Below are positions 1,810 through 53,346 of a DNA stretch of 60,295 nucleotides, piece by piece (the first letter of the stretch is position 1; each line of letters opens with the position of its first letter). A model generated the notes under the pieces. That model saw only the letters and a list, made by a program, of their open reading frames with translations, was not told the DNA's origin and did not search any database. Position numbers and translations under genes: made by a program. The stretch comes from an uncultured virus (IMG/VR IMGVR_UViG_3300020048_000043) (lineage: Duplodnaviria > Heunggongvirae > Uroviricota > Caudoviricetes). The DNA lies in IMG/VR virus record IMGVR_UViG_3300020048_000043, positions 62,001-122,295 of that record; one strand, given 5' to 3'.

Positions 1810-1810
1810 A

Positions 1811-2488: not shown

Positions 2489-2521
2489 TATAATCGATCT
2501 CCTTTAATATAGAAATAAGAT

Positions 2522-2550
2522 ACGCCCTAAGTTTTTTATACTTAGGGCGT
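2522..2550 (-). terminator. intergenic hairpin, probable intrinsic terminator
   Basis: 10-bp perfect inverted repeat ACGCCCTAAG/CTTAGGGCGT just after the stop at 2558. Confidence 0.65.
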
Positions 2551-2557
2551 TTGTTCC

Positions 2558-3271
2558 TTAATCTAACATATTGTCTAAACTAATAGTTTTATTAGACACA
2601 ATATTAGGTTGTACATTTGTGCTTACTTTACCAAACATATCATCATCTGAAGAATTATGAAACATAGATGTTTTGTTTTCAGATGTTTTATTACTAGTGT
2701 ATTCGTAGGATGTTTCTTCCCAAATTTTAGTAAGTGCCCATTCACAAGCACACGCAAGTTCATATGTTTGATATGATGTTAAATAAATCATTGCGTTTTT
2801 ATAACCTTGACCTTGTTTGAGATACATGGATATAGAAATACCATTAGGGTCTCTTTGATTCCCACCGATTTTTAAACCTGTTGTTGTATTATTTTTTCTA
2901 TTTTGATGAACAAAATCATCTGTATGTGTTACAGCATTTCCTCTTTGATCTGTTTTTTGTCTACCAGCATCATCTACAGCGGGATTTGTATATAACTTTA
3001 AATAATATGGATTTTTTAGTCTAGCAAAAGCAGCAAGTTCATGTGTTTCCATTTTCATTACAATTTTATCATTATAATTAAATAGAGGAACACCGCCTTG
3101 TCTTACTACATCCATAGATATGTTTTTATCAATTGGGGGAGCCATGGTGATAAACACATTAGCTTCTTTTTTAGTTTGATTGTATTGTTCATTTGGTTGA
3201 CGAACAGTTAAATTTACTTGAATTACACTCATTCTTACATTATATGATGAAAATATGTTATAGCTAGACAT
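2558..3271 (-). CDS. putative Whirly/PC4-fold ssDNA-binding protein, copy 1
   Basis: VFITMAPP...FNYNDKIVMKMETHEL pattern and acidic-hydrophobic tail ISLDNMLD; paralogous to 46015-46761; likely start MSSYN at 3271. Confidence 0.45.
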   Translation of the reverse strand: MSSYNIFSSYNVRMSVIQVNLTVRQPNEQYNQTKKEANVFITMAPPIDKNISMDVVRQGGVPLFNYNDKIVMKMETHELAAFARLKNPYYLKLYTNPAVDDAGRQKTDQRGNAVTHTDDFVHQNRKNNTTTGLKIGGNQRDPNGISISMYLKQGQGYKNAMIYLTSYQTYELACACEWALTKIWEETSYEYTSNKTSENKTSMFHNSSDDDMFGKVSTNVQPNIVSNKTISLDNMLD

Positions 3272-3551
3272 TTTTCTTTTCCCCATCTTTCTTTTTGAGT
3301 TTAATAGATACAATAAAATTAATTAATGTTGTAGTAAAATGTAAAACTAATATTCTTTTTAATTCAATCGTCATCGTTTCGAACAATACAATACCACCGA
3401 TTAGAGGAAAAGTTAAATAAAGAATAAAATCAAAAAACGTCTTTGAATGTGTAACAATCAATGTTATAGCTAATAAAAAATGCGTTATAGTATAACCTAT
3501 TTTTGATACCCATTCAAATGTAGGTTCAAATTCTTTACTTTCCTCCAACAT
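3264..3551 (-). CDS. small membrane protein
   Basis: three hydrophobic segments; AAGGAGG RBS. Confidence 0.7.
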   Translation of the reverse strand: MLEESKEFEPTFEWVSKIGYTITHFLLAITLIVTHSKTFFDFILYLTFPLIGGIVLFETMTIELKRILVLHFTTTLINFIVSIKLKKKDGEKKNV

Positions 3552-3563
3552 AAGACCTCCTTT

Positions 3564-6696
<3,133 letters not shown>

Positions 6697-11421: not shown

Positions 11422-14415
11422 TTAATCTCCTGCGAAATATTCATTTATCAACGATGATCTATTATTCCATACATCATTAACTGTTATTTGTCCATCTGCT
11501 CTAATAACTTGAATAATTTTTCTATGCTTTATATCTAACGCACAAACAGCAAGTTCGTTAGGTTCCATTTCTCCTAATCCTTTATATCTAAATATTTGTA
11601 CATTTGTTTTTCTTATTTCTTCTACTTTACTTTCATCATATATTGGTGTAAATTGTTTTTTATTATAATATCCAAACAATGGTGTTTCTATTACATGTAA
11701 ATATCCTTCATCTATAAGAGAAGGTAAACAATAATCAAACATAGATATTAGAAGGGCTGCTATATGCCTTCCATCCGGATCAAAGTCACAATTTTGTACT
11801 ACAATTGCATTTTGTTTTACAATTCCTTCTTTTTCTACATCATATACTATAGCATAATTATGATATTTATCTACAGTAATATTATAGACCGGAATCAATA
11901 CATCTAATTTTTTTCGTTCAACGCATGTCACTTTATGATTATATGTTTTTGCATATTCAATCATTTCATCAATAGAGTCATAATAATTCAATACATTTTC
12001 CCATTTCGGATCTGATCTTGATGTTCTATATTCTTCATAATATGGACCAATAACAGGTTCATTATTATCAAGAATCTTTTTAACTATTCTAGCAATACTA
12101 TTTCTTGCTTTCTTTGTTTTATCATATGAAACACAAACTTTATAATCATTCAAATTGTATTTATCTTTATTTTGTATTGCTGTTTTTAAAATTTCGTCAT
12201 ATGAATCAAAATATTGTAACAAATTTTCATAAAAAGAAGTACCATTACTACGCCAATTATTAAAATTCGTTTCATTAAATTCAAGATTTTCAGATAATAG
12301 TTTACATACGCATTTTAATATTTTTCCTTTTTTTTGTAATATTTTAACATCTTCTCTTTGATTTAGTTGACGTGTAGATTCTTTATTTTTTTCTGAATAA
12401 TTATATTCTGTTAAATGTATACATATATTTTGATATGTATCTGTTTCACGGTGTAAATAAGATATTCTTTCACCATGTATATTTAATGCGTTATACGCAT
12501 TAATGTGATATGAATTATGATCTTTTTGTGTTAACCATTCTAAATTACAAAGTTCATTGTTTAAAGTATTTGAATCTTTGTGATGACAAACTAAATTTGA
12601 AAACAATTCATCCGTTTTATTTGCCATTATTCTATGTGTTCTATAATATTTAGATTCATCTACATTTCGTTTCATGTATTCATATTGTAATCCGTGTTGT
12701 TGAAACATATGAAAATATAATGGCATTAAACTCATACCTGATTGTAAATCTTTAGCTTCTATTTTAGTTCCATCTCTTAAAATAAATTTATGTGTAGGTG
12801 TAACTTTTACTACATGATCATTATCGATAGTAACATATATTAATTCATCTACATAACTTGTAATTCTTGGAGCATATGCTTTACCAGGAACATAATTACC
12901 ATGATCATCAATAGAGTATACCCAATAATCTCTACCAGGTTTTTCTTTTTCCATTTGAACAAGTTCTTCAAATGTTTTATCTTGACCATTTAACATTTTT
13001 ACCTTTGTATCACCTGTAAAACACATAACATTGATTTTTCCATATCTTATATCTGATAAATCTGTTGTGAATGGTTTTACATTGATAGCTGTAAAAATAT
13101 TCATCAGTGTTTTACTATTCAAAATCTTTTTCTTATCCGCATTGAGTACATTCAATACTTTTCCACGTAAGGGGAGTAACGCATGTATATTTATATCACG
13201 TGCTAGTTGTAACGTACCACCAGCAGATTGTCCTTCTAATAGAAATAGTTCTCTTTCATCCACATTAGCAGAAGTACAATCTTTTAAATCTTCTACCATA
13301 ACAACGTTTCTACTTTTACGTGTTTTGGTTTGTTTCTTTGTGTCCAATTCTATTCTATATTCTTGAGCTAATGCTAACCAATTCATAACAAACGTTTGAT
13401 CATTTTCTAAAAACTTTATAATACTGTTTTTATTAATGATATGTTCTATATCACTTTCTCTCATGTTCAATGAATACTTTGTTTGTCCAGCAAAAGCAGG
13501 ATTTGTTATTTTTAAAATTGTCATAAGACGTCCACCTATTAAGACATCTTCTTTATTAACATGTAACTTTGCTTTGACTGCTTTTTCATAAAGATAATCT
13601 TTCACAATTGTTTCAATCATCTTTTGATGTGTTCCTTGATCTACGTTCAATGTATTTATAACACCTTTGAATTTCTTATATTTACTACCTTCATTTGTGT
13701 AACCTACATACAAACGTAACTCATCTTTTTTATTTTGAATTGTAGTTGTAAGATACTTAGAACATTCTGTTTCAAATTCTTTCACTATTGTATTTGTAAT
13801 TTTTTTAGATATGACATTGTTGTCTTTCATAACGATAAGAAGCATTTCTATTTTATCTTCATTATCATATACAAGAATAGATTTAAGTCTATTCTCTATA
13901 AGTTCTGGATCTATGAAAACTGTTTCAAAATGTTTTTCATTTGGAGTAAAAGATACACTTGTACTGAATTGTTTTTTATCTACATCTTTTTTAGTTACAT
14001 CTGTTCCATTGAATATGTAATGTCTATGTTGATTACCATTCTTTGTAATTATTTCAAATGAAGTACTTAACGCATTTACAATTACAAGACCTTCACCATG
14101 TAACCCACTTCTATGTTGGTAAAGATCATTATCAAACTTACCTCCAGTGAATAATTTTGTTGCTATTACAACTGGAGCATCTTCTTTAAAATCCGGTGAT
14201 TTGATTGGAATACCTCTACCTTTATCTACTACTGTATATTTATTATTATCCAAATCCATTATGACAGCTAAAAAGTTACTATTGCCTGTAAGACATTCAT
14301 CTGCTGAATTATCTATTAACTCATACAATAGATGCGTTGGATTTTCTGTAGAGCCCATGTAATTCCCTGGACATAGTTGTATGTGTTCAAATTCAGATAA
14401 GCCTCTTATAGCCAT
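11422..14415 (-). CDS. type IIA topoisomerase ATPase/TOPRIM subunit (GyrB/ParE-like) with intein; about 586 aa after splicing
   Basis: ELIDNSADE, DKGRGIP, GGKF, GLHGEG, LLEGQSAGG, PLRGKVLN, DFDPDGRHI, RYKGLGEM. Confidence 0.95.
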   Translation of the reverse strand: MAIRGLSEFEHIQLCPGNYMGSTENPTHLLYELIDNSADECLTGNSNFLAVIMDLDNNKYTVVDKGRGIPIKSPDFKEDAPVVIATKLFTGGKFDNDLYQHRSGLHGEGLVIVNALSTSFEIITKNGNQHRHYIFNGTDVTKKDVDKKQFSTSVSFTPNEKHFETVFIDPELIENRLKSILVYDNEDKIEMLLIVMKDNNVISKKITNTIVKEFETECSKYLTTTIQNKKDELRLYVGYTNEGSKYKKFKGVINTLNVDQGTHQKMIETIVKDYLYEKAVKAKLHVNKEDVLIGGRLMTILKITNPAFAGQTKYSLNMRESDIEHIINKNSIIKFLENDQTFVMNWLALAQEYRIELDTKKQTKTRKSRNVVMVEDLKDCTSANVDERELFLLEGQSAGGTLQLARDINIHALLPLRGKVLNVLNADKKKILNSKTLMNIFTAINVKPFTTDLSDIRYGKINVMCFTGDTKVKMLNGQDKTFEELVQMEKEKPGRDYWVYSIDDHGNYVPGKAYAPRITSYVDELIYVTIDNDHVVKVTPTHKFILRDGTKIEAKDLQSGMSLMPLYFHMFQQHGLQYEYMKRNVDESKYYRTHRIMANKTDELFSNLVCHHKDSNTLNNELCNLEWLTQKDHNSYHINAYNALNIHGERISYLHRETDTYQNICIHLTEYNYSEKNKESTRQLNQREDVKILQKKGKILKCVCKLLSENLEFNETNFNNWRSNGTSFYENLLQYFDSYDEILKTAIQNKDKYNLNDYKVCVSYDKTKKARNSIARIVKKILDNNEPVIGPYYEEYRTSRSDPKWENVLNYYDSIDEMIEYAKTYNHKVTCVERKKLDVLIPVYNITVDKYHNYAIVYDVEKEGIVKQNAIVVQNCDFDPDGRHIAALLISMFDYCLPSLIDEGYLHVIETPLFGYYNKKQFTPIYDESKVEEIRKTNVQIFRYKGLGEMEPNELAVCALDIKHRKIIQVIRADGQITVNDVWNNRSSLINEYFAGD
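11791..13023 (-). mobile_element. intein (411 aa) with HNH endonuclease
   Basis: block A CFTGDTKV, block B VTPTHKF, block F VYNITVDKYHNY, end VQN followed by Cys+1; internal HR..HHKDSNTLNN..NLEWL..H. Confidence 0.93.
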
Positions 14416-15288: not shown

Positions 15289-16416
15289 TCAACCAATAGT
15301 ATTTAATAGTATTGGTCCAGCTTCGTAACCAGCACCATATGGTCCGGTGAAGAATCGATTTAAGATATTTTTGCCCGCATTGATGTCTGCGTTGTCACGA
15401 TGGCCACACGATTGACACAAAAATATCTCGCCGTTCCGATTCTTCTTATCGACATAGCCGCATTGACGACACGTTATGCTGGTGTTCTCAGGCCAAACTC
15501 GTCTAAAGGAAACACGGTTTTCTTCACAGAGCATTTCCAACCTGGTCAGCCAATAACGCACGTTCCAACTGCCGATAACAGAGCGTATATTTTTACTCAA
15601 GCGCCCTTTGAGTTTGGTACCATGTGTAATGTCTTTTAATCGCTCAACTACTATCAAGCTGATATCAGACATCACAATCCTTTTCGCGTTTAAAGCTATA
15701 TAATCTTTCAACGTCTTAATGGCTCTCGCTTTACCCTTCGAACCTTTCTTACGACGTCTGACTATATTGATTAAGGTTTTCAATTCTAAACCAATTTGCT
15801 CGCCTGTTGATAACGAAGCTAATGCGTTGACTCCAGTGTCAATACCAACACAATTTGTAATAGGTTTCTTTTCACCAGTTTGAATTTCAAATGTAACTTG
15901 AACACAATTACGGAATATGACAAATGATCCCATCAAACGACCGCGTGCGTTCCATTTGTGAAACATGCGATGAAGTTTAATAGGAATATCGATTTTAATT
16001 TTATCACCAATAGATCGTAAAGACAACCAACGGTCGAACGTTTTACTTTGCTTGGCTTCAGTGAATGAACAAATTGCTGTTGATAACGCCATTCGATTTC
16101 CATAATGCGTTGGTTTAACTGCCGCTACTTCGCGTTCCAATTCTTTGGAAGCAGCTTTCGCTTGTTCGATAGCCGCGTTTACCATGCTTAGGGCTTCGCG
16201 AGCAGCCTGTTGTTTTAATCTTTGTGTGAAATAAGGGTGTTGAACACGATCTAGCAATTCTTTCTTAAGGTCTGCTTCTCTACATCGTTCAACCCAGAAG
16301 ATATCTATATATGAATTCACTACATGTTTATATTCGTCCATAATAGCGTGGATTTGTTGAAATTTTTTCTTCGTAGCTGAAGTGAAATGTAACTTCACAG
16401 ACCTTAAGATTTTCAT
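15289..16416 (-). CDS. tnpB: TnpB RNA-guided endonuclease (IS200/IS605/IS607 type)
   Basis: RuvC I VGIDTGV, RuvC II VVERL, Zn ribbon TSITCRQCG..CQSCG, RuvC III NADINAGKNI; visibly higher GC than its flanks. Confidence 0.93.
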   Translation of the reverse strand: MKILRSVKLHFTSATKKKFQQIHAIMDEYKHVVNSYIDIFWVERCREADLKKELLDRVQHPYFTQRLKQQAAREALSMVNAAIEQAKAASKELEREVAAVKPTHYGNRMALSTAICSFTEAKQSKTFDRWLSLRSIGDKIKIDIPIKLHRMFHKWNARGRLMGSFVIFRNCVQVTFEIQTGEKKPITNCVGIDTGVNALASLSTGEQIGLELKTLINIVRRRKKGSKGKARAIKTLKDYIALNAKRIVMSDISLIVVERLKDITHGTKLKGRLSKNIRSVIGSWNVRYWLTRLEMLCEENRVSFRRVWPENTSITCRQCGYVDKKNRNGEIFLCQSCGHRDNADINAGKNILNRFFTGPYGAGYEAGPILLNTIG

Positions 16417-28401: not shown

Positions 28402-28478
28402 TGGTGGACCCATTTGGAATTGAACCAAAAACCTGTCCCTTATAAGGAGACTGCTCTTACCGATTGAGCTATGAGTCC
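28402..28478 (-). tRNA. tRNA-Ile(UAU)
   Basis: cloverleaf; anticodon arm GTCTC-CTTATAA-GGGAC; T loop TTCAATT; encoded CCA. Confidence 0.9.
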
Positions 28479-28489
28479 ATATTTTATTT

Positions 28490-28566
28490 TGGTGCCCCTG
28501 GACAGATTTGAACTGTCACTTTATTGTTTTTGGGACAACTTCCTCTACCGATTGGGATACAGGGGC
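28490..28566 (-). tRNA. atypical tRNA, anticodon CAA (Leu), short variable arm, C33
   Basis: acceptor stem GCCCCTG/CAGGGGC; arm GTTGT-CCCAAAA-ACAAT; T arm GACAG-TTCAAAT-CTGTC; CCA. Confidence 0.75.
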
Positions 28567-28610
28567 AGAAAAAAGGAAATCTACAATGACTTCCTAAATT
28601 TGTTTTAAAT

Positions 28611-28697
28611 TGGTGCCGGACACGGGACTCGAACCCGCAAGCCCCACTGGGCGGGGGATTTTAAATCCCCAGAGTTTACCAATTTCTCCAATCCGGC
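28611..28697 (-). tRNA. tRNA-Leu(UAA)
   Basis: arm GGGGA-TTTAAAA-TCCCC; long variable arm; GGTTCGAGTCC; CCA. Confidence 0.93.
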
Positions 28698-29765: not shown

Positions 29766-30896
29766 TTATACACTTTCCTCCATTAAAGATTGACAAAACT
29801 TATACATCTGTGTAAGTCTGTTATGATAATCTCCTTTTACTATCATCATTCTTGGATGACTATAAAAATCTCTAATATTGAAATTCTTGTAGTGATCTAG
29901 TAAAACAACATCTAATTCATCTCTAGCTTCTTCATGTCTTCTCAATCCATCACTTACCCAAGGAACACCCTCAGATGATAAAAAGAATTTAAAATTATAC
30001 AAGTCTTGATAATGTGCGTCATATATAGAACTAAAAAGTTGAAATTCTGTATCAGATATTTCATAAATACCGTTTTCATGTTTGTACAACATATAATAAT
30101 AATATGTAACTACAATATCTGTATCAAAGAAACATATTTTATTACATGTTTTCAACGCATGATCATTTGCTTCTATCTGTAGACGAATAATATTAAAATA
30201 ATCTTCGTCTGTAATAAATCTTTCATCATGAACATTTTGTTCTACGTATGTTCTTCCTATTTCTTCTGCCCATGATGTATGGAATATTTTAGCTAGCATT
30301 TTAACAAGTGTAGTTTTTCCTGTAGACTCTGTTCCTGTAATAAGAATCTTTTTAGCAAAATGCTTACGTGCGCAACCACAAATATAATCCCAATATTTTA
30401 AAGGATTATTTCTTATTTGTGTAGCAGATATTGGATATCTTGTCATAGAATAATCAAAATACTTAACATCATATTCTGGAAAATAAGATTTATATGCTTC
30501 TATATCTTGTTGTTCACCTGTAAAAATAGTAAATTTATTATCTATTGTAAAAGGTGTACAATTATAGAAAATAAAATCTTCCAAACATTTACTCCATTGT
30601 GGCCAACCATATGGATATTCTGCTATATCTGTAGGTTCATCCATGATATGAATCTTAATATTAGCAAAACCTTTTAATTCTGTTTTCAACCAACGTGATC
30701 TCAAATCTGCTGGTATATATTTGATTTTTACTTCTTCGCATAGTTTTGTATCTAATGTTATGTTATTACAAATGATAATGTGTAATTGATCACATTGTGA
30801 ATACGTATTAAAAATATGAGTCAAATGGCCTCTATGTAAGGGAAGAAACTTACCAACTAATATCCCATTATGTAACACTCCAAAATCCATAGACAT
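29766..30896 (-). CDS. nadR: NadR-type NMN adenylyltransferase / ribosylnicotinamide kinase (no HTH)
   Basis: GKFLPLHRGH, ISATQIR, Walker A GTESTGKTT, FFDTD, WVSDGLR. Confidence 0.9.
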   Translation of the reverse strand: MSMDFGVLHNGILVGKFLPLHRGHLTHIFNTYSQCDQLHIIICNNITLDTKLCEEVKIKYIPADLRSRWLKTELKGFANIKIHIMDEPTDIAEYPYGWPQWSKCLEDFIFYNCTPFTIDNKFTIFTGEQQDIEAYKSYFPEYDVKYFDYSMTRYPISATQIRNNPLKYWDYICGCARKHFAKKILITGTESTGKTTLVKMLAKIFHTSWAEEIGRTYVEQNVHDERFITDEDYFNIIRLQIEANDHALKTCNKICFFDTDIVVTYYYYMLYKHENGIYEISDTEFQLFSSIYDAHYQDLYNFKFFLSSEGVPWVSDGLRRHEEARDELDVVLLDHYKNFNIRDFYSHPRMMIVKGDYHNRLTQMYKFCQSLMEESV

Positions 30897-31750
30897 TAAT
30901 TATTCCTCCATTTTTTCAAAATAGACCATTCTCTTTTTTCTTTAGCATCTTCTGTCCATTTATAATACCCATAGAAACTATTAATAAGAAAACCAAACCA
31001 CATGAATATAATTGGAAGCACCCATGTAATTGTAGTTTTATCGTTCATTATAACTAGAATCCACATACTGATTGTAATTACATTTGTTAGAATCCAAAAT
31101 ATCCACTGCTGTGAATATGCCAATGTCATTAGGATTTGTCCAATAATCTGTAATACTTCCGTAGATGAATCCAGAATTGGACCAAGTAAAGAAATACCTG
31201 TTATTGCTGTTATATTTGTATATATTGATTCGTTTCTTTTCATTACTTGAACAAACCAATGATCTACCATTGAAAGAAACAAACCAAAACCAATTAAAGA
31301 TATGATAGAAATTATTGTAATTATTCTAATACCTTGTTTTGTTAGTTTTCTAGGTTTGATATATACTTTAGAAAACTTATCCATGTGATATTTTTTCCAT
31401 ACAACCCAACCAATAAATTGGAAGGGTAGAAAGAAAAACCAATTTAAAATCCAATCACCATAATATCCGCTATACCAAGATATTGCTCCATACATAATAG
31501 CATTAATTATACCCCAGTAGTAATTAGTAATATTTTCTTTTGCTACTAATACAACACACACAATACCTGTTATAGCAGCTACTGGTGATATAATCCAATT
31601 TAATATAACATCAAAAAATGTTTCGTATGGTGTTATATATGAAAAGTAAAATGTAGAACCCATAATGATAGTAGTAATAAAACCTACTAATATTTTTTCA
31701 AACATGTTCCATGACGCAAAGTCTAGAGATTTTTGAATATACTTTATCAT
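30896..31750 (-). CDS. pnuC: nicotinamide riboside transporter
   Basis: multi-TM; GIVCVVLVAK..NYYWG, LDS, QWIFWILTN, NSFYGYYKW; coupled to nadR. Confidence 0.88.
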   Translation of the reverse strand: MIKYIQKSLDFASWNMFEKILVGFITTIIMGSTFYFSYITPYETFFDVILNWIISPVAAITGIVCVVLVAKENITNYYWGIINAIMYGAISWYSGYYGDWILNWFFFLPFQFIGWVVWKKYHMDKFSKVYIKPRKLTKQGIRIITIISIISLIGFGLFLSMVDHWFVQVMKRNESIYTNITAITGISLLGPILDSSTEVLQIIGQILMTLAYSQQWIFWILTNVITISMWILVIMNDKTTITWVLPIIFMWFGFLINSFYGYYKWTEDAKEKREWSILKKWRNN

Positions 31751-33970: not shown

Positions 33971-36900
33971 TTACCCTTTCGGATCAACACCCATACATAG
34001 TAGAATAGAATCAAAGAATTGACCAGCTCCACTACGATTTACATCGAAATTAATATCTGCTTTACCGTTCTTATATATTTCAGATATTACTTGTTTTTTT
34101 GCTTCTGGATTATCTGCGTTCACTAACCAGAAATCCGAAAGAACTGTATGTGCATCATAAGATAATAAACACCATGTGTCCATCTCACCCATACGTTGTC
34201 CTCCCGCACGTGCTTTACCTCGTGTGGGTTCTAGTGTGGTTTTAATATATGGTCCCAAATTTCTAACATTTTGTTTTACTGCAGAAATGTGTTCCAATTT
34301 CTGTATATACATTATCCCCCAACAAACAGGATATTGTGTTTTTGAATTTATTTCTGGTAATAACATTGTATCTGATAATGTTGTTCCTACAAATTTTAAT
34401 GCTTCGTATATTTTTTCATTTGTTGGAGATCTGAATGGAGGAACAACTAAATGTATTTTATTATTTGCTATACCAAAAATAAATTTTTTAAAATCGGAAT
34501 CTGCTAACATTTGTATATTTTTAGAAACTTGTGAACTATAACTTTTATCTGTTGTGCCATCTAATAATTCATATAATTTAATAAGAAATTCTTCGATCTT
34601 TTGTCTTGTTTCATTTTTCTTTAACATTTCTGCTACACGTTTACATGTATAATATAAAATTTTACCTACAATGACTTCATACATTTGTCCTAAATTCATT
34701 CTACTAACTACAGAAAGAACGTTAATTAAAATATCCATACGTTCTCCACTTTCTGTAGTAGGCATCAAATGATCTGGAACTATATGTGATACAACTCCTT
34801 TAGCAGCATGTCTATTTGTTAACTTATCACCTAATGAAACAGGCATATAACGAAGCATTTTAATAATGATTAATGTTTTTGGAATTTTTTCACCATGCGC
34901 TGTATATTTTCCTACGTTATTTATAATTTTTTTCTTATCAAATATTGGTGGTAAACCTTGTTCTTTTAATCTAGCATTTGTTTCGCTATATGCTATTTCT
35001 ATTTGATTTAGAATTGGTCCAACAAGTTGTAAACTTTGTGGATACACATTAATATCTACCACTTTAATTTTAGCTGGAGCTATTATTTCATAATCTTCTG
35101 TTAATGCCATATCTCCAACTAAGTTTCTTTTGATATTAGCAATGGTTTCACCTTTTTCAAATACTTGACCTATTGCTGGAAATAACGCTAATTTATCTCT
35201 ATCTGTAAGTTCTATTTCAACCGTATCATAATGTAATGATGTTAATTTTTTAGCTAAACTTTCACTTAATACAATACCGTCTTCGTAATTATAACCAAGA
35301 TATGATAAGTATCCACATTTTACATTTACACCTTGTGAAAGTATAGGTTTTAAAAATTCATTTCTTGTAAGCATACGATTTTGTCTAACACTATCTCCAA
35401 CACGAACAGATGGTGTATGTGTAATTGCGCTATCTATTCCCGATCCACTTTTAAGTTGTGTAGGTCTAATATCTATAGCTTCTTTTGTACCATCTGTATA
35501 TTCAAGAATAATAACATTTTCATCTATATATTTTACAACACCATCTTTTTTAGCACGTTTAGTAAATGTCGAAGAAGTTAATGCTGGTATTGTAGATTCT
35601 GTTCCTGTTAATAATATAGGTTCTTCTCCATCAACAATAGGAACAGTTTGTCTGGCTTGATTACAAAACATGTTTAAACGAGCTTGGTCATTCTTATCAA
35701 CAAAAGGTGATAATGAAGTTGTAAGTCCTAGTATATCTGTGTTTTCATCATTAAAAGACATAGGCATAAAACTATGTTTATCGTCATCATAAACATGTCC
35801 TGTTGTTAAAAATAATCTTATACCAGGATCCCCTTCAGATGTATCTATTGGATCTAAATTACCAAAATGTGAAGGTCTCATTGCTCTATCTTTAGGTTGA
35901 ACAGCATCTCTATTTGGTAACCCACCAGGACCCACTGTTTTAACACTAGCATATCCAGATATTTCTTCAACTGGATTTTGTTGTTCTAACATTTGTAATA
36001 CGCCATGTTCTCTAAAGTAATTAATAACATGTCCAATATTAACCTTCAATGGGGCATCAGGTGTATAAATTCTTTGTTTTTTATAAATAGAAACACCCGC
36101 ATGAATACCTTGTTCTACACCAGATACAATAATATCCGTTGTACGCAAATATGTATTATGTATAGCTAATTTATCATCTGATTCACCTGATATGGAAAGT
36201 TCAGAACAATGCTTAATAATATCTACTAATTCTGTTGGTAACTTATGTTCTTTTAATACATCATATGTTTGTACGTCTACAATATATTTTGTGGTCTGTC
36301 TAATATTGTATTCTGCTTTATTTTGCTTAGTATATTGTTTTAATGATTCTAATGCTTCTTTCACCTGATTAATATTTTTTGGTTTATATTTAAACCACAT
36401 TTGTTCTAAACCCGAAATAATAACTTTACTCATTGTATCCATTTTCTTTTCAATAACTAAAAATGTTCCATCTCCCATAGGAAGTGAAATAAAATTATTA
36501 TCTTTCTTTTTCTTTTCATAAAAAGCAAAATTAAATTTATATGCTCTTAACAATCCTTCTACACTTAACAAACAAGAAAGTAACATAGCTACAGGTATTT
36601 TAAATCCACCTAAATAACATCGTATATCTTCTCGACGATTGAACAAACCATATGTAAAACTGATGGCAGAATAATTTGATCTAAATTGTACATATCCAGG
36701 TTTGACTATGAAAATAGGTAATGTTGATAATACTGTAGGATAATACCATTTCAATCCACCAGATACAACATAACGATCTTCTGTCAATTTAGGTACTTTA
36801 AATTTCAATGTTATTTTTTGTCCATCTGGTTGTTTTACTTTAATATTAATATGTTCTATTTGTGTTTCAAATAATTCTGTATCTGATGTATTTACATCTG

Positions 36901-38218
36901 TGAATGTTATATTTAATAATTCATATCCAATTTCACTTAAAATGGGAGGTAATGATTTTTTCAAAATGTCGATTAATTTTTGTTGATATCCATGTCTTCT
37001 AGCAATAGCATGTGAAATATGATTTTTAGTTAAATCTTTTTGTATATCCGGTTTATGTATTGCATCGATAGGTAATGTTTGTGTTAAACCTAATTTTTTA
37101 GCTTCTTGTTCTTGTTTACTAACAGTTTGTAAATCTTGTTTAGTTGGAGTATCTATTAATGCAGATTCGGGATTATCTGATTGGTTTAATGCTGCTTTCA
37201 TTATTTGTTTTTGAGCAAAATCATCATCTAATGCATATGCTTTAACAACTGTTTTTGAAATTTCCGGTGACGATTTAGCAAATGCTTGAACTCTTGTTAA
37301 TGCAGTATCTATATTTATTTTTAATGATTGTAAATCTTTATAATTATTACGAATAATATCTTTAGATGCTAATATAATATCCCTTTGTGTGATAACTGGT
37401 TTTTGAATTTGTCGTTCTGGAGGTTTTTCTTTTATTTCTATATCATCTGTTTTACTTATTTTTTCTTGAGGTATTTTTTTATCTTGTATTATTTTTTCTG
37501 GTTCTATTAAATCTATAAGTTCGTTTTGTTCTTCTTTTTCAAATGTTTCAAAATCTTCTTCAACAGAAATAATTTTTTTATTTTTACAAGATTGATAAAT
37601 CCATTTAAGAAAAATAGCAAACCTATTATCCGTAGAACGAGATTTTTCATAAATTAATCTAGCGGAATCGTTTGTAACTAAAAATATTTTATCAATACCT
37701 AAATCTATAATATTTTTACGTAAATTAAATGAAAACATAAATGAATACAATTCTTTTTCACGAATACGTGCAGGTAATACAGATTCATCTATATAATATA
37801 AAAGAATTGTTTCTTTATTTGCTTCTTTGACGGTAGACACAATATTTGAAAAAAACTTCAATCCTTCTTTAGCAAAACGAATAGGTGATAATCTTTGATT
37901 CAACGAATGTATAAAAGGTGTAATATCAAAATAAAAACTTCTACCTTCTAATGCTTTTGGATTAAATAATACTGTTATATTTTTTCCATATTGTTGTCTT
38001 ACATTTGCTGGATTGATTGTCATTATTCTATTAAATACTCTTTGTATTCTGGGAGTATACGCAAAATAAAGACGTCTACTTAATGGTAGTTTAGGTACAA
38101 ACGGCGCACCTTGTTCTGCTCCTTCTACCAACAATATTACATTATGATCTTGTAAAGGAACATACATTCCACTAGATCTATTAACATATAACCTAAATTT
38201 TTCTACACGTAATGCCAT
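33971..38218 (-). CDS. rpoB: DNA-directed RNA polymerase beta subunit, set 2 (1415 aa, with about 400-aa N-terminal extension)
   Basis: GPGGL, DPIDTSEG, FCNQARQ, GYNYEDGI, GDKLTNRHAAKGVVS, SRMNLGQ, KLEH, GGQRMGEMD. Confidence 0.95.
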   Translation of the reverse strand: MALRVEKFRLYVNRSSGMYVPLQDHNVILLVEGAEQGAPFVPKLPLSRRLYFAYTPRIQRVFNRIMTINPANVRQQYGKNITVLFNPKALEGRSFYFDITPFIHSLNQRLSPIRFAKEGLKFFSNIVSTVKEANKETILLYYIDESVLPARIREKELYSFMFSFNLRKNIIDLGIDKIFLVTNDSARLIYEKSRSTDNRFAIFLKWIYQSCKNKKIISVEEDFETFEKEEQNELIDLIEPEKIIQDKKIPQEKISKTDDIEIKEKPPERQIQKPVITQRDIILASKDIIRNNYKDLQSLKINIDTALTRVQAFAKSSPEISKTVVKAYALDDDFAQKQIMKAALNQSDNPESALIDTPTKQDLQTVSKQEQEAKKLGLTQTLPIDAIHKPDIQKDLTKNHISHAIARRHGYQQKLIDILKKSLPPILSEIGYELLNITFTDVNTSDTELFETQIEHINIKVKQPDGQKITLKFKVPKLTEDRYVVSGGLKWYYPTVLSTLPIFIVKPGYVQFRSNYSAISFTYGLFNRREDIRCYLGGFKIPVAMLLSCLLSVEGLLRAYKFNFAFYEKKKKDNNFISLPMGDGTFLVIEKKMDTMSKVIISGLEQMWFKYKPKNINQVKEALESLKQYTKQNKAEYNIRQTTKYIVDVQTYDVLKEHKLPTELVDIIKHCSELSISGESDDKLAIHNTYLRTTDIIVSGVEQGIHAGVSIYKKQRIYTPDAPLKVNIGHVINYFREHGVLQMLEQQNPVEEISGYASVKTVGPGGLPNRDAVQPKDRAMRPSHFGNLDPIDTSEGDPGIRLFLTTGHVYDDDKHSFMPMSFNDENTDILGLTTSLSPFVDKNDQARLNMFCNQARQTVPIVDGEEPILLTGTESTIPALTSSTFTKRAKKDGVVKYIDENVIILEYTDGTKEAIDIRPTQLKSGSGIDSAITHTPSVRVGDSVRQNRMLTRNEFLKPILSQGVNVKCGYLSYLGYNYEDGIVLSESLAKKLTSLHYDTVEIELTDRDKLALFPAIGQVFEKGETIANIKRNLVGDMALTEDYEIIAPAKIKVVDINVYPQSLQLVGPILNQIEIAYSETNARLKEQGLPPIFDKKKIINNVGKYTAHGEKIPKTLIIIKMLRYMPVSLGDKLTNRHAAKGVVSHIVPDHLMPTTESGERMDILINVLSVVSRMNLGQMYEVIVGKILYYTCKRVAEMLKKNETRQKIEEFLIKLYELLDGTTDKSYSSQVSKNIQMLADSDFKKFIFGIANNKIHLVVPPFRSPTNEKIYEALKFVGTTLSDTMLLPEINSKTQYPVCWGIMYIQKLEHISAVKQNVRNLGPYIKTTLEPTRGKARAGGQRMGEMDTWCLLSYDAHTVLSDFWLVNADNPEAKKQVISEIYKNGKADINFDVNRSGAGQFFDSILLCMGVDPKG

Positions 38219-38237: not shown

Positions 38238-41200
38238 TCACAGATCTAATAAATTATCTAGATCTGAAGGTATCAACTGTTGATCTGTATTATTCAATAT
38301 TGCGCTATGTAAAGCATTAGATACATTTTCAAACGCAGCACCACGTTTCCAATTTTCTAACAATGCTACTTGTTTTAATGCTACTCGCAAAGGTCTATCT
38401 TTCATCCCACTTAATCTATATGGAAATTGTGGTCGTTTGGGATCTCTGCATAATTGAGATACTACTAATTCCAAAGACCAAAAAGGTATTATTGTTTGAG
38501 TAGCAAATAATTCATACATCTTAATAGCTAAGATATCATTAAACATTAATCTACTATTAAGAAGTTTACTAATTTCTTGTATAACACCTGTTATGGATTG
38601 TGAACTATTTTTCATACTTCCAAAAATTACATTTTCTTCTATATATACAATATGTTCAAAACCATCTATTACTAAACTATCTCTTGTTGGAACTACAATA
38701 GTGAAATTATAATTTAATACAAAATCAAATGTTTCATTTTCTGTTTCAATAGTAAATATTTGTACAATATATTCGTTCGCACTTCTTCCACGAATATCAT
38801 CTTCATTAAAAATAATTTTTAATTTTTGTTTAGACATTATTTCATTACCATCTTGTGTAACATAATTCTTTAAATTTGAATCTGGCTCTATGAAATTCTT
38901 AATAGTCCCAGCTCCACCAGTATGATAGCAATAGGTAAGTATTTGATATTATCTCTAACTTTTCCCCTGCTCCACACCGTGCTTGCGACTTTCACCGCAC
39001 ACGGCGTTCCATCGATATAATTATACTATCGACTAAGGGCTATTCCTCAACTCTCATTACAAGAGTTTCATAGGTCATTCCCTCGCTCTCACTATAGAAT
39101 AAATTATCTATAGCTTTCCACGTTCCAATCGACTTAGCTTTACATATACCCTTAGGTGCTTGCTCTACATTAAATAAATTATATCTTCATTGTTAGATAT
39201 CTCGACTTTCTTAACATCCAGCATACTCATCGATATTTATTTAATGCTTCATAACAAGTTCGTGTTCCTCACCATAGGTATTTTATAGCTCCCCAGTATA
39301 TTCTACTGACTTTACCTAGCTTCATACGTTATTAACGCATGTAGGAGTATTAGGAAGATTGTTTTAGCTAACATGATAGCCTCATTCCAATCTTCAGTCG
39401 ATTAGTTGTAACTCGTATATACGAGTCCTCTCTTTTCGTATTTTTATACTTATAGAGAAACGTGTCGCACGAATGTCTGCATGGTCATCTGGGATCCTCT
39501 TTCACCTATTATTTGTGCTGCTACCATTCCTATATTTGTAGAACGTATTTTAGTAACAGCATCATCGCCTAAACATTTATGACAAATTTCTGGTGATGTA
39601 CAATACATAGGTGAACGAATTTGAATAGTTTTATCAATATATTCTTCTGGATTAATAATCATGGTTCCATTGGATAAATATCTAGTATTTAAACCTTTTG
39701 CTATATCTTTTGTTACTTTTAACTCGAAATAATTTTTTGTTCCACAATCTTTTGTTCTAGCACTCATTTTAACACTTACTGTTGCATAAGCTAATTGTCT
39801 TGCTAAATATCCAGATACAGCAGTCATTTGTGATCTATCTACAATACCCTTACGACCACCTATACCTACTGCCATAAATTCTGAAGGTTTTAATCCATCA
39901 CTTAAAGAAGAAACAACAGGTTTTTCAATAACAGAACCATCTACATCTTCTACAAACCCTTTTGCTACTATTTGTGTTTGTATATTTTCTGTTTTACCTC
40001 GTCCTCCACTATTTACTAAATCATAAATAATGGAATTACTTTGATTTAATGCTTCTAATACATCTTTAGTAATAGCACTAAGTTCTTTTGATGGGTTTTC
40101 TGCTTTGAATGCTTCTTCCTTACGTTTTTCAAATTCTTTAGGTAAAGCAAATTGAGAAATATCCATACTTTTACCTATTAATGTTGGAGCAATCATACAT
40201 ACTTTCATTGTTTCATTCATTTTTTCCATAACAATATTTGCTTCTTCTTTTTCTGCTAATTTTAAAAACAAATCTGTAACATCTTTTTTCTTATATTGTT
40301 TTTCTATAGGTAAACCAATTATTTCTTCTAATATTGCTCTACCTATTGTTATTTCTTTCTTTTTAAAATTAACCAATAACGTTGGATCTGAATATTTTAA
40401 TAATACTCTATGTAAATCTTGAATACTATACACAGCATCTTTTAAAACTTTTTCAGATTTTGGATTTGCTGTTAACATATAAAAACCGTATACAGCATCA
40501 TTTTTAAAAGTTAATGCTAAACTTGTTCCATTAGGACCCCAAATATTTTTATCCATCATCATCTTTTCTTTGGCTTCTTTTTGTGCTGCTTCCGTTAATG
40601 GTAAATATATTCCCATCTGATCGCCGTCAAACATCTATATTCAAGTGTATTCGCTAAATACACCTCGCCTATTTAGGCTGCTATACGTCACCGTATAGAT
40701 TAGACTATATCTTCACCTTCATTACTGAAGGGCTCCCCGTTTCCACTCGCTTGAGTGTACTCTACTCCGTCATATAACGTTTCGATAGTCGTTGAACTTT
40801 CTGTTCTTGGCCGAACTTATAGATTTTGTTTTATAACCAACAACAAATATTCTAAACAATTTTTAGATAAATATTCAGTATAAAATTTTTGTGTTTCATC
40901 TAATAATGTATATTCTTGAAATTGTAACAATAATTCACATTCTAAATTTATTATATCATGTGCGTTTCCTTTAAATGAATGATGTATAAAATTTTTTGCT
41001 TTTAATTCTGTTAAACGTCTTTTGAAATCTGAACTACTTCCTAATTTTATTTTATCATCAAATTCAATCACATAAAGATATCTATCATCTTCTTTATTTG
41101 TTCTTTTCAAAAGATTATCTCTATTACGAATACGATCTGAATATTCACTATTAAAACCTTTTGATGTTTTATTTAATGCTCTAGCTTTAGATAATTCTGA

Positions 41201-42739
41201 TAATAATTTTTTATGTTCTTCACCATGCTCATCATAAAAATGATAAAAATATGATGTTCCTTCATATATTCCTTCTTTATGTAATTCTTTTATTTTTAAT
41301 GAATGACCTTTTCTTGAACATTCTTGTGAACAAAAATCTGATAAACGGCCAGATGATATCCTATCCGACCAAAATGTAGTAATTTCTTTATTACATATAG
41401 GACATAATTTTTGATATGTTTCATCTTGTAAAATATATTTTTTGTAATATGTTAATAACTCTATATTATGAACTTTTTGTAAATGTATTTTTAATAGAAA
41501 AAATTCTTTATTACATATTAAACATAACATGTTAAATTCTCCCTTGTTCGGCCAAGAACAGTTTAGCTGCTGATTATCTCTTTTGAGACTTTCCAGCAAT
41601 TAGAGGAGTTGTTTTTATGCTGTCACCAGCATAGCAGACAGTGACGGTAGTTTATCTGCATTATAACCGTCTGTTATAAGTGGGTTGATATGAAAACTAT
41701 CACTCCAAACTATAACTGGATAAAATGCTCTTAAATTTAAACGATGTAATGCAGGATCTCTTTTCAATACAACAACTTTTTCTGTACATAATTCATTGAG
41801 AATTTTTAAAAATAATGAAATAATTGTTGGATCTAATAAATCTTTTTTTCCTTCTTGAATCATATTAATCATATTACCTATATTAAGAATAGATGGTCTA
41901 ACAATACCCAATTTTTTCCAATCTTCCGCATATTTTGTTGTAGACTTATGAATAACAAATGGTTTAAAAATAGCAAGAGCAATTTTAAAAGGAACACCTA
42001 CTTTATTAGGTGGTATTTCAGGATCACCAATAATAACTGCCCTAGCTGAGAAATCCATTGATTTTCCTAATAATGATTTACGTTGTACTCCTGCTTTTCC
42101 TTTTATCAAATCTTTTAAAAGTTGGTATGCTTCAAAAACATGCTGTTGCATTTTTTGCAACAAATCTTTATAACTTCTAGATTTTATATCTGTAGTATTG
42201 ATAACTTGAGATTCATTCAACATATTAATATATTTTTCGTTAATAGGATCCATATTAATACGTGAATTTTCTATTCGTATAGGTCTAAACTGTGGAGGTA
42301 ATACAAGTATCTGTGAAATGAATGCTTTTTCTTTATGTTTGATAATGTAATTTATTAATGTTTTACTAGCTTCTGTAATATCTTTTTGTTTCAAAAATAT
42401 TTTTTGACAATATTTTATTTCCTCTACAAAATAATCTATACCCCAAGCTCCACTATTACCATCTACTAATTTATCATCTATAATAGACATTTTGCCTGTA
42501 AAAAATTTTTGTATTGTACTACATCTTCTATCTGCTATTTCATATAATAATGGGTGTAATACTTTACATTTTAAATCAATAGAACCATATACGGTTCTCC
42601 ATTTAGAAGAACCGTATAGGCCAAATACAACATTTGAAAATAAACCATTTGGATCAAATTTATCACCAATCATAATATTAGATGTAGTGATAAATTTGAT
42701 TTCATTATCTTCAATATATTTTGCTATATCAAGTAACAT
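38238..42739 (-). CDS. rpoC: DNA-directed RNA polymerase beta' subunit, set 2, spliced: exons 42739-41654, 40631-39471, 38924-38238 (977 aa)
   Basis: joins restore YNAD|FDGDQM and QMTMQTF|HTGG in frame; also GKSMDFSARAVI, KRDPALHR, TAVSGYLARQL. Confidence 0.93.
38925..39470 (-). mobile_element. ORF-less group II intron (546 nt)
   Basis: 5' GTGCG, 3' AT; domain V GAACGCCGTGTGCGGTGAAAGTCGCAAGCACGGTGT with CGC triad; domain VI; domain IV reduced to a short hairpin. Confidence 0.93.
40632..41653 (-). mobile_element. group I intron (1022 nt, IA-like) carrying a homing endonuclease
   Basis: exon ends in U, intron ends in G; P1 GCAGAU/GUCUGC; P10 CCGUCA/UGACGG; P AATTGCTGGAAA, Q AATCAGCAGC, R GTTCAACGACTA, S AAGATATAGTCTA. 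Confidence 0.95.
40817..41530 (-). CDS. intron-encoded homing endonuclease (N-terminal Zn fingers, C-terminal GIY-YIG/T5orf172-like domain)
   Basis: AGGGAG RBS then ATG at 41530; CLIC..HL..H, CPIC..FCSQEC, YLYVIE..IKLGSS..RRL..LE. Confidence 0.8.
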   Translation of the reverse strand: MLCLICNKEFFLLKIHLQKVHNIELLTYYKKYILQDETYQKLCPICNKEITTFWSDRISSGRLSDFCSQECSRKGHSLKIKELHKEGIYEGTSYFYHFYDEHGEEHKKLLSELSKARALNKTSKGFNSEYSDRIRNRDNLLKRTNKEDDRYLYVIEFDDKIKLGSSSDFKRRLTELKAKNFIHHSFKGNAHDIINLECELLLQFQEYTLLDETQKFYTEYLSKNCLEYLLLVIKQNL

Positions 42740-48147: not shown

Positions 48148-48567
48148 TTAGAAAATCTTTTCATGACCTATCAACATAGAAGAATGTGTAATAGACACAC
48201 CTATTTCTGTCATATACACAACTTTAATAGATAAGTTTTTAATCCAACTACTACAATAAATACAGGGGCAAGATGGTAGATTAGCATCATATCCCCTATA
48301 GATCAACATAGTATCATATTTCTTATTATTCTTTTCTGCATCCATCCAAGCAGATAATTCTGCGTGCATGGGATACTTACGTCGATCTATTTGGTATCCG
48401 AGTTTTTTAATCATAGGATGTGTTTTAGAACTATTCAATCCTATAGATATTATACGTTGTCTGTATAACATAAAACAAACACAACGTAGATTACTCGGAT
48501 TTATTTCTGGGCGATCTTGATTAATATTTCTAGCAAGATCACTATGACGCAAATACACATCTACCAA
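48148..48567 (-). CDS. cytidine/dCMP deaminase-like Zn enzyme
   Basis: IISIGLN, MHAE, PCIYC. Confidence 0.82.
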   Translation of the reverse strand: MVDVYLRHSDLARNINQDRPEINPSNLRCVCFMLYRQRIISIGLNSSKTHPMIKKLGYQIDRRKYPMHAELSAWMDAEKNNKKYDTMLIYRGYDANLPSCPCIYCSSWIKNLSIKVVYMTEIGVSITHSSMLIGHEKIF

Positions 48568-52203: not shown

Positions 52204-52851
52204 TTATTTTTTTAATTTTTCTTCTCTAATTTCAATATTTTCATCAATAGAAACAAGCATATCTACTACTAATCCACATCTATGTGGATTAATAAGACAT
52301 TTATCTACATTCTCTTTTAATACACATAATGCTCGTTGAAATAGTTCTGGTCTTGTATATAATCCTAATTCTGACCACAATCTACACACACAATATCCCA
52401 TACCAACTAAAAGTTTCTTTTTCTTTGTATCATTAAGTTTTGTCTTACGTGTTCTTTTTTCACAATATCTATTTGTATAATGTAATCTACCATTATATTC
52501 AATAACAAGTTTAAAATTATCAAAAACAAAATCTAATTCATACGGTTCTATAATATCTGTTACATTATGTCTAATTTCATAATTTGAATAATTTTGAGTT
52601 AAAAAATTATATATCACTTCTTCTGTAATAGAACTAAAACTGTCTTTAACAGGTTTATTTTCTTTTTTAGATAATATATAACATTTTTTATCACAAAATT
52701 TTCTTTCTTGGTCATATTGTTTAACATAATCTTTAAATATTAATGGTTTTCCACAATATGAACAAATTACTGGCTTTTTTTGATATTTATGAAGAAGTTC
52801 CTCAAAATATTCAATATCTGAAATAAATTTAGACACAAGGGAACACCCCAA
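52204..52851 (-). CDS. free-standing homing-endonuclease-like protein (Zn finger + Vsr/DUF559-like nuclease)
   Basis: CSYCG..FCDKKC; SITEE..YELDF..VIEYNGRLHY..D..K. Confidence 0.75.
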   Translation of the reverse strand: MGCSLVSKFISDIEYFEELLHKYQKKPVICSYCGKPLIFKDYVKQYDQERKFCDKKCYILSKKENKPVKDSFSSITEEVIYNFLTQNYSNYEIRHNVTDIIEPYELDFVFDNFKLVIEYNGRLHYTNRYCEKRTRKTKLNDTKKKKLLVGMGYCVCRLWSELGLYTRPELFQRALCVLKENVDKCLINPHRCGLVVDMLVSIDENIEIREEKLKK

Positions 52852-52860
52852 TCTAAAGAT

Positions 52861-53346
52861 TTAAATATCAAACCCTTTTTGTTTTAATATAGAAACTATT
52901 TTATTAACAATAGGTATTCCTAATAGATTAGCTATTAGACCAGATACAAACACATATGTTACTCCTAAATGATATGGAAAACTAGCACCTACATATAGAA
53001 TTAAACCAACACCTAAAGCAATAATAAAAGCAAATGCTATCATACCAATATATTGTGAAAATTTATTTGTTAATGTTTTCGAAACAGTATATGCTGTAAA
53101 ACCAGCAATTAAACTTACAAATGGCATTCCACCCCAATCTATAATACCGAAAGGACTATTAAGATTAGCTAAAAATGTACCTAACGCAATAGCAATATTC
53201 ATATTTTTTCCCATTAATACAAACGGTTGAAGAATATCTGCCATTCTAAATTGAATTGGACCATATGCTAAAGGTGCTAATATTAACGTCATAATACAAT
53301 ATAAACTAGCAACTACACCGATGTGTGTTAAATCTCTAATTTTCAT
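52861..53346 (-). CDS. queT: queuosine-precursor transporter (ECF S component)
   Basis: ASLYCIMT..PLAYGPIQFRMAD..GTFLANL.SPFGIID. Confidence 0.85.
   Translation of the reverse strand: MKIRDLTHIGVVASLYCIMTLILAPLAYGPIQFRMADILQPFVLMGKNMNIAIALGTFLANLNSPFGIIDWGGMPFVSLIAGFTAYTVSKTLTNKFSQYIGMIAFAFIIALGVGLILYVGASFPYHLGVTYVFVSGLIANLLGIPIVNKIVSILKQKGFDI

Follow-up and report, generated by a model that had tools for sequence, protein, structure and literature searches.

We analysed a 60,295-nucleotide stretch of DNA, spanning bases 62001-122295 of an IMG/VR virus record 122,295 bases long, for which CheckV gives a completeness of 44%; this whole stretch is called the window below. It comes from a large uncultured phage that encodes two sets of RNA polymerase (RNAP) genes. 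The window has a G+C content of about 28%, and its minus strand carries nearly all of the genes. Megablast against phage records returned only matches of about 90 nucleotides to the intron cores described below, and no close relative. Our subject is the gene at 42739-38238 (-), which appears as open reading frames (ORFs) of 374, 394 and 199 residues, separated by non-coding stretches and a further ORF of 260 residues. These pieces resolve into one RNAP beta-prime gene with three exons and two predicted introns, laid out as follows (P0028 is a database protein introduced below).

41654..42739, minus strand: exon 1, 362 codons (1086 nt), ending in GYNAD; matches positions 1-140 of 166 of the Pfam profile RNA_pol_Rpb1_2 (E 3.2e-19) and aligns to P0028 residues 1-362
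40632..41653, minus strand: predicted group I intron, 1,022 nt, recognised by two halves of the Rfam model RF00028 and by helix pairing
40817..41530, minus strand: putative endonuclease gene, encoding 237 residues when read from the ATG at 41530, within the loop of P6 in the group I intron
39471..40631, minus strand: exon 2, 387 codons (1161 nt), from FDGDQM to QMTMQTF; matches Rpb1_2 profile positions 141-165 and Rpb1_5 profile positions 1-94 (E 1.9e-16)
38925..39470, minus strand: predicted ORF-less group II intron, 546 nt, recognised by RF02004 and RF00029
39214..39219, minus strand: candidate exon-binding site 1 (EBS1), GGAUGU, at group II intron positions 252-257, forming 6/6 pairs (one of them G-U) with the last six exon-2 bases, ACAUUC
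38238..38924, minus strand: exon 3, 228 codons plus stop (687 nt), opening with HTGGAG; aligns to P0028 residues 750-977 and matches phrog_2926, 'virion structural protein' (E 6.3e-7)

Both introns lie in phase 0, because all three exon lengths are multiples of three. At the first junction, exon 1 ends in GCAGAT (NAD) at 41654 and exon 2 opens with TTTGAC (FDGD) at 40631; at the second, exon 2 ends in ACATTC (TF) at 39471 and exon 3 opens with CATACT (HT) at 38924. Reading through from exon 1 gives the ORF of 374 residues, made up of 362 exon codons and 12 intron codons, and reading through from exon 2 ends in VRHVSL and a stop, six codons into the intron. An earlier note on this DNA had placed a group I intron at NAD/FDGD and a group II intron at TF/HTGG (the slash marks the insertion point), both in phase 0, with stop codons 12 and 6 codons past the exon ends and with GCAGAT-TTTGAC and ACATTC-CATACT as the junction hexamers. 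The coordinates, Rfam matches and exon lengths agree with this layout, the stops fall where it had put them, and the hexamers match the exon borders in the DNA.

When the exons were joined by script, they gave a product of 977 residues with no internal stops, reading GYNAD/FDGDQMG and QMTMQTF/HTGGAG at the junctions. This product was identical at 970 of 977 positions to P0028, a contiguous protein of 977 residues encoded on a contig of 5,209 nucleotides, and the two were collinear and ungapped. Further one-piece collinear homologues were P0033 (56% identity), P0035 (45%) and P0036 (45%). The Rpb1_2 profile itself runs on over the first junction, from position 140 in exon 1 to position 141 in exon 2. 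In an alignment to a solved bacterial beta-prime subunit, 7xya_D, the first residue of exon 2 corresponded to residue 461 (FDGDQM) and the last to residue 935 (TMRTF). We take these residues to correspond to the E. coli positions D460/F461 and F935/H936, the latter including the trigger-loop histidine. The interrupted gene thus encodes a multisubunit RNAP beta-prime, with NADFDGD, Rpb1 domains 2 and 5 and the trigger loop TFHxGG all present, and its active site can be contiguous only if the group I intron and the group II intron are both removed.

The two introns and the putative endonuclease

No match to the group I model RF00028 was found in Rfam scans of the whole window and of 5-kb pieces, because the 714-nt ORF sits in the loop of P6. 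Scans of the ORF flanks recovered RF00028 positions 1-140 (26.7 bits, E 2.4e-5) and 117-253 (39.4 bits, E 5e-9), and the same halves scored 40.4 and 24.3 bits in a search of the 122-kb record. A script found the helices to be fully paired: P1 (6/6), P2 (7/7), P3 (6/6), P4 (6/6), P5 (5/5), P6 (16/16), P7 (5/5), P8 (6/6), P9 (7/7) and P10 (6/6). P1 is GCAGAU:GUCUGC, in which the splice-site U wobbles with a G of the guide sequence (41634-41639). At the other end, the terminal base of the intron is G, and P10 (CCGUCA:UGACGG) pairs with exon-2 bases 3-8. The 16-bp stem of P6 (41546-41561 with 40801-40816) closes the loop that holds the ORF. Additional stems stand between P7 and P3', which we take to be a mark of subgroup IA. 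The catalytic core, the U-G wobble in P1, the terminal G and P10 together identify this insertion as a predicted group I intron. A separate RF00028-like match (38.4 bits, E 1.4e-9, below the gathering score) was seen at the very start of the record, outside the window (locus L084, G000:C1:5-335 (+)).

The ORF within P6 carries N-terminal zinc-finger modules, with Pfam matches to DUF4428 (E 4.3e-5) and ROS_MUCR (E 0.0027). An exhaustive phmmer search returned 43 relatives of its product at E <= 0.001, and we aligned 24 of these 43, taken from the top of the list with one protein of 1572 residues left out. Among the aligned homologues, 3 of 24 matched T5orf172 or MUG113 at 5e-10 or better and 8 of 24 matched ROS_MUCR. 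In the alignment, Y153, K162 and G164 were invariant, and R172, E197 and E219 were conserved in at least 90% of sequences. The AlphaFold2 model of the protein had a predicted local distance difference test score (pLDDT) of 90.4. When residues 142-237 were compared with known structures using VIA-align, the top three matches, with Z scores of 5.1, 5.0 and 5.0, were to At-HIGLE and two Slx1-Slx4 entries; they covered 73-79 aligned residues at a root-mean-square deviation of 2.5-3.1. We take At-HIGLE and Slx1-Slx4 to be GIY-YIG nucleases, the VIA-align result itself naming no fold. The intron ORF thus probably encodes a putative homing endonuclease that combines zinc fingers with a GIY-YIG-superfamily (T5orf172-like) domain.

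For the second intron, RF02004 (group-II-D1D4-5) matched at 39282-39410 along model positions 1-201, scoring 89.4 bits where the cut-off is 34.5. RF00029, which covers domains 5 and 6 (D5/D6), matched at 38925-39009 with 61.9 bits against a cut-off of 40, and this match stops exactly at the last base of the intron. The intron ends are GUGCG and AU, fitting the consensus of 5' GUGYG and 3' AY. Its D5 triad is CGC, compared with AGC in the Rfam model, and a bulged A in D6 can be read 8 nt from the 3' end. The D5/D6 pair with its bulged A, the D1-D4 scaffold and the boundary consensus mark the element as a predicted group II intron. Aligned with the candidate EBS1 to within one column, the group II intron of phage AR9 gene g145 (see below) carries the hexamer GGUACU, which is complementary to AGUAUC, the end of its exon; this compensatory change comes from a comparison of one intron pair only, and we estimate that the 6-mer pairing on its own is near chance expectation. 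A candidate EBS2 at intron positions 195-200 was rejected: the block is conserved in AR9 yet misfits the AR9 exon.

Beyond the read-through tails of the exon ORFs, the group II intron contains no ORF of at least 40 residues. Since it has no protein of its own, any mobility must depend on a reverse transcriptase or nuclease acting in trans. The first 21 nt of the intron have one copy in IMG/VR outside this record, in locus L086. There, a group II intron of about 2.6 kb (885-3521, minus strand, of a 13,113-base contig; RF02004 at 108.5 bits) encodes a protein of 614 residues with reverse transcriptase and HNH domains. This intron is flanked by an ORF that matches BppU_N and one that matches a collagen repeat, and a Prophage_tail ORF lies upstream of it. 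The RF02004-class family therefore includes members that bear a reverse transcriptase (L086), members that bear an endonuclease (AR9) and ORF-less members such as the intron in the window.

Occupied and empty alleles

To describe occupancy of the two insertion sites, we used the 11 database proteins that were at least 44% identical to exon 2, P0001, P0002 and P0028-P0036. They fall into the following states.

Site 1 (NAD/FDGD), interrupted, the protein starting with MFDGD: P0001 and P0002 (2/11)
Site 1, contiguous NADFDGD: P0028-P0036 (9/11)
Site 2 (trigger loop), ending in QTF followed by the read-through VRHVSL as in the window: P0001, P0002 and P0029 (3/11)
Site 2, an intein (C...HN) between H and T of TFH/TGG: P0030, P0031, P0032 and P0034 (4/11)
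Site 2, uninterrupted: P0028, P0033, P0035 and P0036 (4/11)

The more distant proteins P0037 and P0038 also bear an intein, and P0037 begins with MFDGD. In total, six relatives therefore have an intein inserted between H and T/S, a position one codon further downstream than the group II site. The earlier note had expected ORF callers to report split subunits from such a gene; indeed, P0001, P0002 and P0029 begin or end exactly at the intron borders.

At the DNA level, we compared alleles in Logan contigs of four public runs (X1, X2, X17 and X18). One contig of run X2, a DNA run, passes from 40631 directly into 11 letters of the exon-1 end (as reverse complement), with one synonymous change. 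Another contig of this run begins exactly at 41654, intron 1 is almost uncovered, and contigs span both group II junctions (38447-39015 and 39427-39865). The X2 allele is thus one without intron 1 and with intron 2. In run X17, a contig covers the 5' junction of intron 1 (41585-41794) and then carries 35 other letters in place of 783 (40802-41584) before joining 40801; this allele has intron 1 without the endonuclease ORF. A contig of run X18 spans the 5' junction of the group II intron (39000-39899). Run X1 is identical to the window, but it is possibly the sample from which the window came. In the wastewater and sludge runs, alleles without the intron occur together with alleles whose intron has no ORF.

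Other contigs of X17 and X18 resembled the group I core (40672-40838 and 41507-41673), with summed depths of 1722 and 869 in X17 and 225 in X18, and a joint that bypasses the ORF region, with a short side of 21 letters, had a depth of 6867. The probable source of these high-depth contigs is other organisms, abundant in those samples, whose group I introns are related but have no ORF.

A search for related loci with exon 2 alone returned no loci. The alignment-based search kept 80 IMG/VR loci, all at most 34% identical to the query, and this set is biased against carriers of intron 1 because the search patterns demanded a contiguous NADFDGD. Rfam gave no intron match at the gathering score in the best 10 of the 80 loci. 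When the spliced product was used in tblastn, gaps of 0.8-2.6 kb appeared near residues 750-860 in L002, L007 and L008 (at most 34% identical); these gaps, in which Rfam matched no intron, may be inteins or other insertions in the trigger-loop region.

Probable selfish insertion and rival explanations

We favour, with a probability of roughly 0.9, the explanation that one beta-prime-like RNAP gene was independently invaded by two unrelated selfish self-splicing introns. Intron 1 would act as a group I ribozyme between the D and F codons of NADFDGD, with P1 setting the 5' site and the terminal G and P10 setting the 3' site. Its endonuclease would cut intron-less alleles, and the intron would then be copied in by recombination. 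Intron 2 would act as a group II ribozyme between the trigger-loop F and H codons, splicing by branching at the bulged A of D6. Removal of both introns from the transcript would restore the reading frame of 977 residues. From the sequence features, we infer that splicing occurs and that it would be required for function, not used for control. The existence of empty, ORF-less and single-intron alleles means that the introns are optional mobile parasites at conserved sites. They would lie in catalytic motifs because such DNA provides the most conserved homing targets, and not because the enzyme is regulated by splicing.

Several observations weigh against this explanation. Each RF00028 half alone falls below the gathering score of 50 bits, because the 714-nt ORF splits the model. 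The endonuclease's own T5orf172 match is weak (residues 151-180, E 0.037, 15 bits against a cut-off of 20), a Foldseek search of its model against the PDB gave no match at E <= 0.001, and Z scores of about 5 are in the range that VIA-align itself calls common. No EBS2 was identified in the group II intron, and the 122-kb record, only 44% complete, yielded no match to the reverse transcriptase family RVT_1. The introns of P0001, P0002 and P0029 were deduced from protein ends alone. Furthermore, no listed holder of the sequence is recorded as RNA; X17 and X18 are labelled RNA-Seq but flagged as probably DNA, so the run contigs do not show splicing.

Instead of being parasites, the introns might form a regulatory gate, in which two chemically different splicing reactions serve as a checkpoint that delays or conditions production of the polymerase. 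Both do lie in motifs essential to the enzyme, and unspliced RNA would give no activity. Guanosine is required for the group I reaction; the group II one depends on Mg and perhaps on a factor supplied in trans. However, near-identical alleles lack one or both introns (P0028 and the X2 contigs, at about 99% protein identity), occupancy is patchy across relatives, and in six of these the neighbouring codon holds an intein, which is not an RNA-level device; insertion at active-site codons is also, according to a review passage, the signature expected of homing elements. We consider a gate very improbable because occupancy is optional among near-identical alleles, and the suggestion in the earlier note that double splicing gates the timing of this polymerase found no support. 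Its more specific form, an AND-gate by which the polymerase, probably packaged in the virion, would appear only late or in particular intracellular conditions, seems a shade less probable again. Least credible of all is the idea that nothing is spliced, each of the three ORFs being translated on its own and the products assembling into a split beta-prime. The beta and beta-prime subunits of jumbo phages are naturally split, as described in a review (Sokolova et al. 2020, PMC7598289), and the last three bases of the intron supply an in-frame AUG at exon 2, giving the MFDGD start seen in the window, P0001, P0002 and P0037. The splits here, however, fall within the Asp triad and the trigger loop, and the known split site follows the double-psi beta-barrel (DPBB) domain (PMC7598289). 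Foreign residues, 12 and 6 in number, would be attached to the pieces, no start codon stands where exon 3 begins (its first ATG is 29 codons in), both intervening sequences appear as intact ribozymes, and a collinear one-piece allele exists (P0028).

A further proposal is compatible with selfish insertion: the intron-1 endonuclease could serve as a weapon that cuts the NADFDGD DNA in the RNAP genes of co-infecting relatives. By analogy, this is plausible, though we regard it as rather unlikely. A precedent is PhiPA3 gp210, which acts against PhiKZ (PMC11620839), the target codons are extremely conserved, and the runs from wastewater and sludge hold intron-less and ORF-less alleles together. 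On the other hand, the nuclease families differ (GIY-YIG-like here, HNH in PhiPA3), and the phage's own second beta-prime gene (6709-9567) is intron-free although it shares a 14-nt identical core over the group I homing site and 38 of 54 positions overall. Because that gene has stayed uninvaded despite the shared core, any specificity of the putative endonuclease must reach into the diverged flanks.

Under selfish insertion, the locus illustrates cleanly, from nature, how conserved catalytic codons can serve unrelated selfish elements as landing pads: within one lineage of large uncultured phages, a small number of codons in the RNAP active centre is targeted by a group I intron, by a group II intron and by an intein. 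Alleles that are empty, occupied or devoid of the endonuclease are found side by side in metagenomes from wastewater, sludge and landfill. For annotation, the consequence is that gene callers fragment such genes into three (P0001, P0002 and P0029), and for detection, that an ORF hides a group I intron from a routine Rfam scan. No new mechanism is opened by these results.

Gene context and comparison with known systems

The interrupted gene has a partner directly downstream, and a second RNAP set and other features lie elsewhere in the window.

33971..38218, minus strand: gene for a beta-like subunit of 1415 residues, downstream of the interrupted gene and its partner; Pfam matches to Rpb2_6 (E 3.1e-42), Rpb2_7 and Rpb2_3
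6709-9567, minus strand: second beta-prime-like gene, 953 residues, contiguous; Rpb1_5, Rpb1_2 and Rpb1_1
5731-6696, minus strand: ORF of 322 residues without a family, between the second-set RNAP genes and just upstream of the 705-residue part
3567-5681, minus strand: beta-like C-terminal part of the second RNAP set, 705 residues
9582-10847: topoisomerase IV subunit A-like gene, adjoining the GyrB-like gene
11425-14415, minus strand: GyrB/topoisomerase-like gene with an intein; HATPase_c, DNA_gyraseB, Toprim and GyrB_C, with Intein_splicing at residues 474-855 (E 6.8e-12)
15292-16416, minus strand: TnpB-like ORF, 375 residues; Cas12f1-like TNB domain (E 4.9e-14)
52207-52851, minus strand: free-standing DUF559 ORF (E 1.1e-5), the free endonuclease of the earlier note
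28405-28697, minus strand: three consecutive transfer RNA (tRNA) genes; Rfam tRNA at 67, 55.7 and 48.1 bits
14480-14896, minus strand: 6-pyruvoyl-tetrahydropterin synthase-like (PTPS) gene
52864-53346, minus strand: QueT transporter gene
48151-48567, minus strand: dCMP/cytidine deaminase gene
29769-31750, minus strand: nicotinamide mononucleotide (NMN) transporter gene adjoining a gene for an AAA_28 protein

The intein, the TnpB-like ORF and the free endonuclease, which the earlier note had also reported, each have Pfam-level support; DUF559 is presumably a Vsr-like endonuclease domain. The TnpB-like ORF lies in a locally G+C-richer stretch (0.34-0.36 at 14-17 kb). The auxiliary metabolic genes, PTPS, QueT, the deaminase and the NMN transporter, hint at queuosine or deazaguanine-type functions and functions related to nicotinamide adenine dinucleotide. 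Jumbo phages of the phiKZ/AR9 type likewise have two RNAPs, but the beta-prime genes of the phage studied here are unsplit.

The group I intron also resembles T4-type td with I-TevI, which has a group I core with extra stems after P7 and a GIY-YIG ORF looped out from a peripheral helix, inserted at conserved codons of an essential enzyme. In the window's putative endonuclease, zinc fingers at the N terminus are followed by a T5orf172-like, nuclease-like domain at the C terminus, whereas the order in I-TevI is, as we take it, the opposite.

The closest known arrangement is AR9/PBS1 g145, a single phage RNAP beta-prime gene that contains both ribozyme classes. In GenBank, AR9 g145 is a coding sequence in three pieces for the N-terminal subunit of the virion RNAP beta-prime, with two endonuclease genes inside. 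Lavysh et al. (2016) reportedly demonstrated by experiment that the AR9 introns self-splice. Rfam matched RF02004 (80.7 bits) and RF00029 in AR9 g145, followed by RF00028 (86.7 bits). A search for GUGYG as the 5' splice site of the AR9 group II intron found none; Table S1 of Merk et al. (PMC12350094) lists this intron as subtype IIB with a CGC triad and a start of GTATG. We therefore reconstructed the AR9 exons using the group II borders of Merk et al., and inferred the group I borders from the 5'-site U and the terminal G, not from the join coordinates of the record. This gave a frame of 503 residues without internal stop, in which the group I intron splits GGDYD/GDTVSL.

By this reconstruction, the AR9 group I intron lies at the catalytic motif, two codons from the NAD/FDGD site. 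The AR9 group II intron likewise belongs to RF02004 with a CGC triad, and it aligns to the window's intron at the 5' end, the D1 core and D5/D6. The two genes nevertheless differ in several respects. In AR9 g145, the group II intron precedes the group I intron, and each of the two houses an endonuclease gene (g147, g146), of a different family from that in the window. The AR9 group II intron lies in the RYPIEQY/Q region, whereas that of the window is in the trigger loop and ORF-less, and the gene that hosts the introns in AR9 encodes just the N-terminal half of a beta-prime that is split, whereas the window's gene is an unsplit beta-prime of 977 residues. The novelty implied in the earlier note was overstated, given that AR9/PBS1 g145 already pairs a group II with a group I intron.

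In their survey, Merk, Jones & Eddy 2025 (PMC12350094) describe 20 group II introns in cultured phages and matches in 9,229 IMG/VR contigs. Six of the 20 are ORF-less, for example three in the Listeria jumbo phage LPJP1, and the detection logic set out there is the same as ours: Rfam matches to D1-D4 and D5/D6 together with an intron-less homologue. The Results text of PMC12350094 makes no mention of a group II site at the trigger-loop F/H, and titles and abstracts of the open-access papers searched yielded no intein or group II intron at the RNAP trigger loop. The searched literature did not contain the exact insertion sites, a trigger-loop group II intron, an intein and an intron one codon apart or an unsplit beta-prime host gene. 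Taking these results together, the kind of arrangement is already published (AR9/PBS1), and the exact sites and the unsplit host gene were not found in the searched literature.

Selfish elements at conserved catalytic codons are known from other systems as well. Inteins at conserved active-site codons are described by Swithers et al. 2009 (PMC2814812), but these are protein-level elements, and the window's beta-prime gene has none. According to Birkholz et al. 2024 (PMC11620839), the virion RNAP beta gene of PhiPA3 has a group I intron whose endonuclease, gp210, nicks the PhiKZ homologue and gives a competitive advantage. Like the first intron here, that system pairs a group I intron with a homing endonuclease beside the conserved catalytic-region aspartates of a jumbo-phage RNAP gene, but the gene is beta and not beta-prime, the enzyme is an HNH nickase and not GIY-YIG-like, there is a single intron, and its function was experimentally tested. 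A published idea, given in a review (PMC7598289), is that the split RNAP subunits of jumbo phages arose from intron invasion followed by intron loss. An unsplit, intron-laden beta-prime gene with an in-frame AUG at exon 2 is the kind of intermediate that this idea requires, at sites that differ from the known split site.

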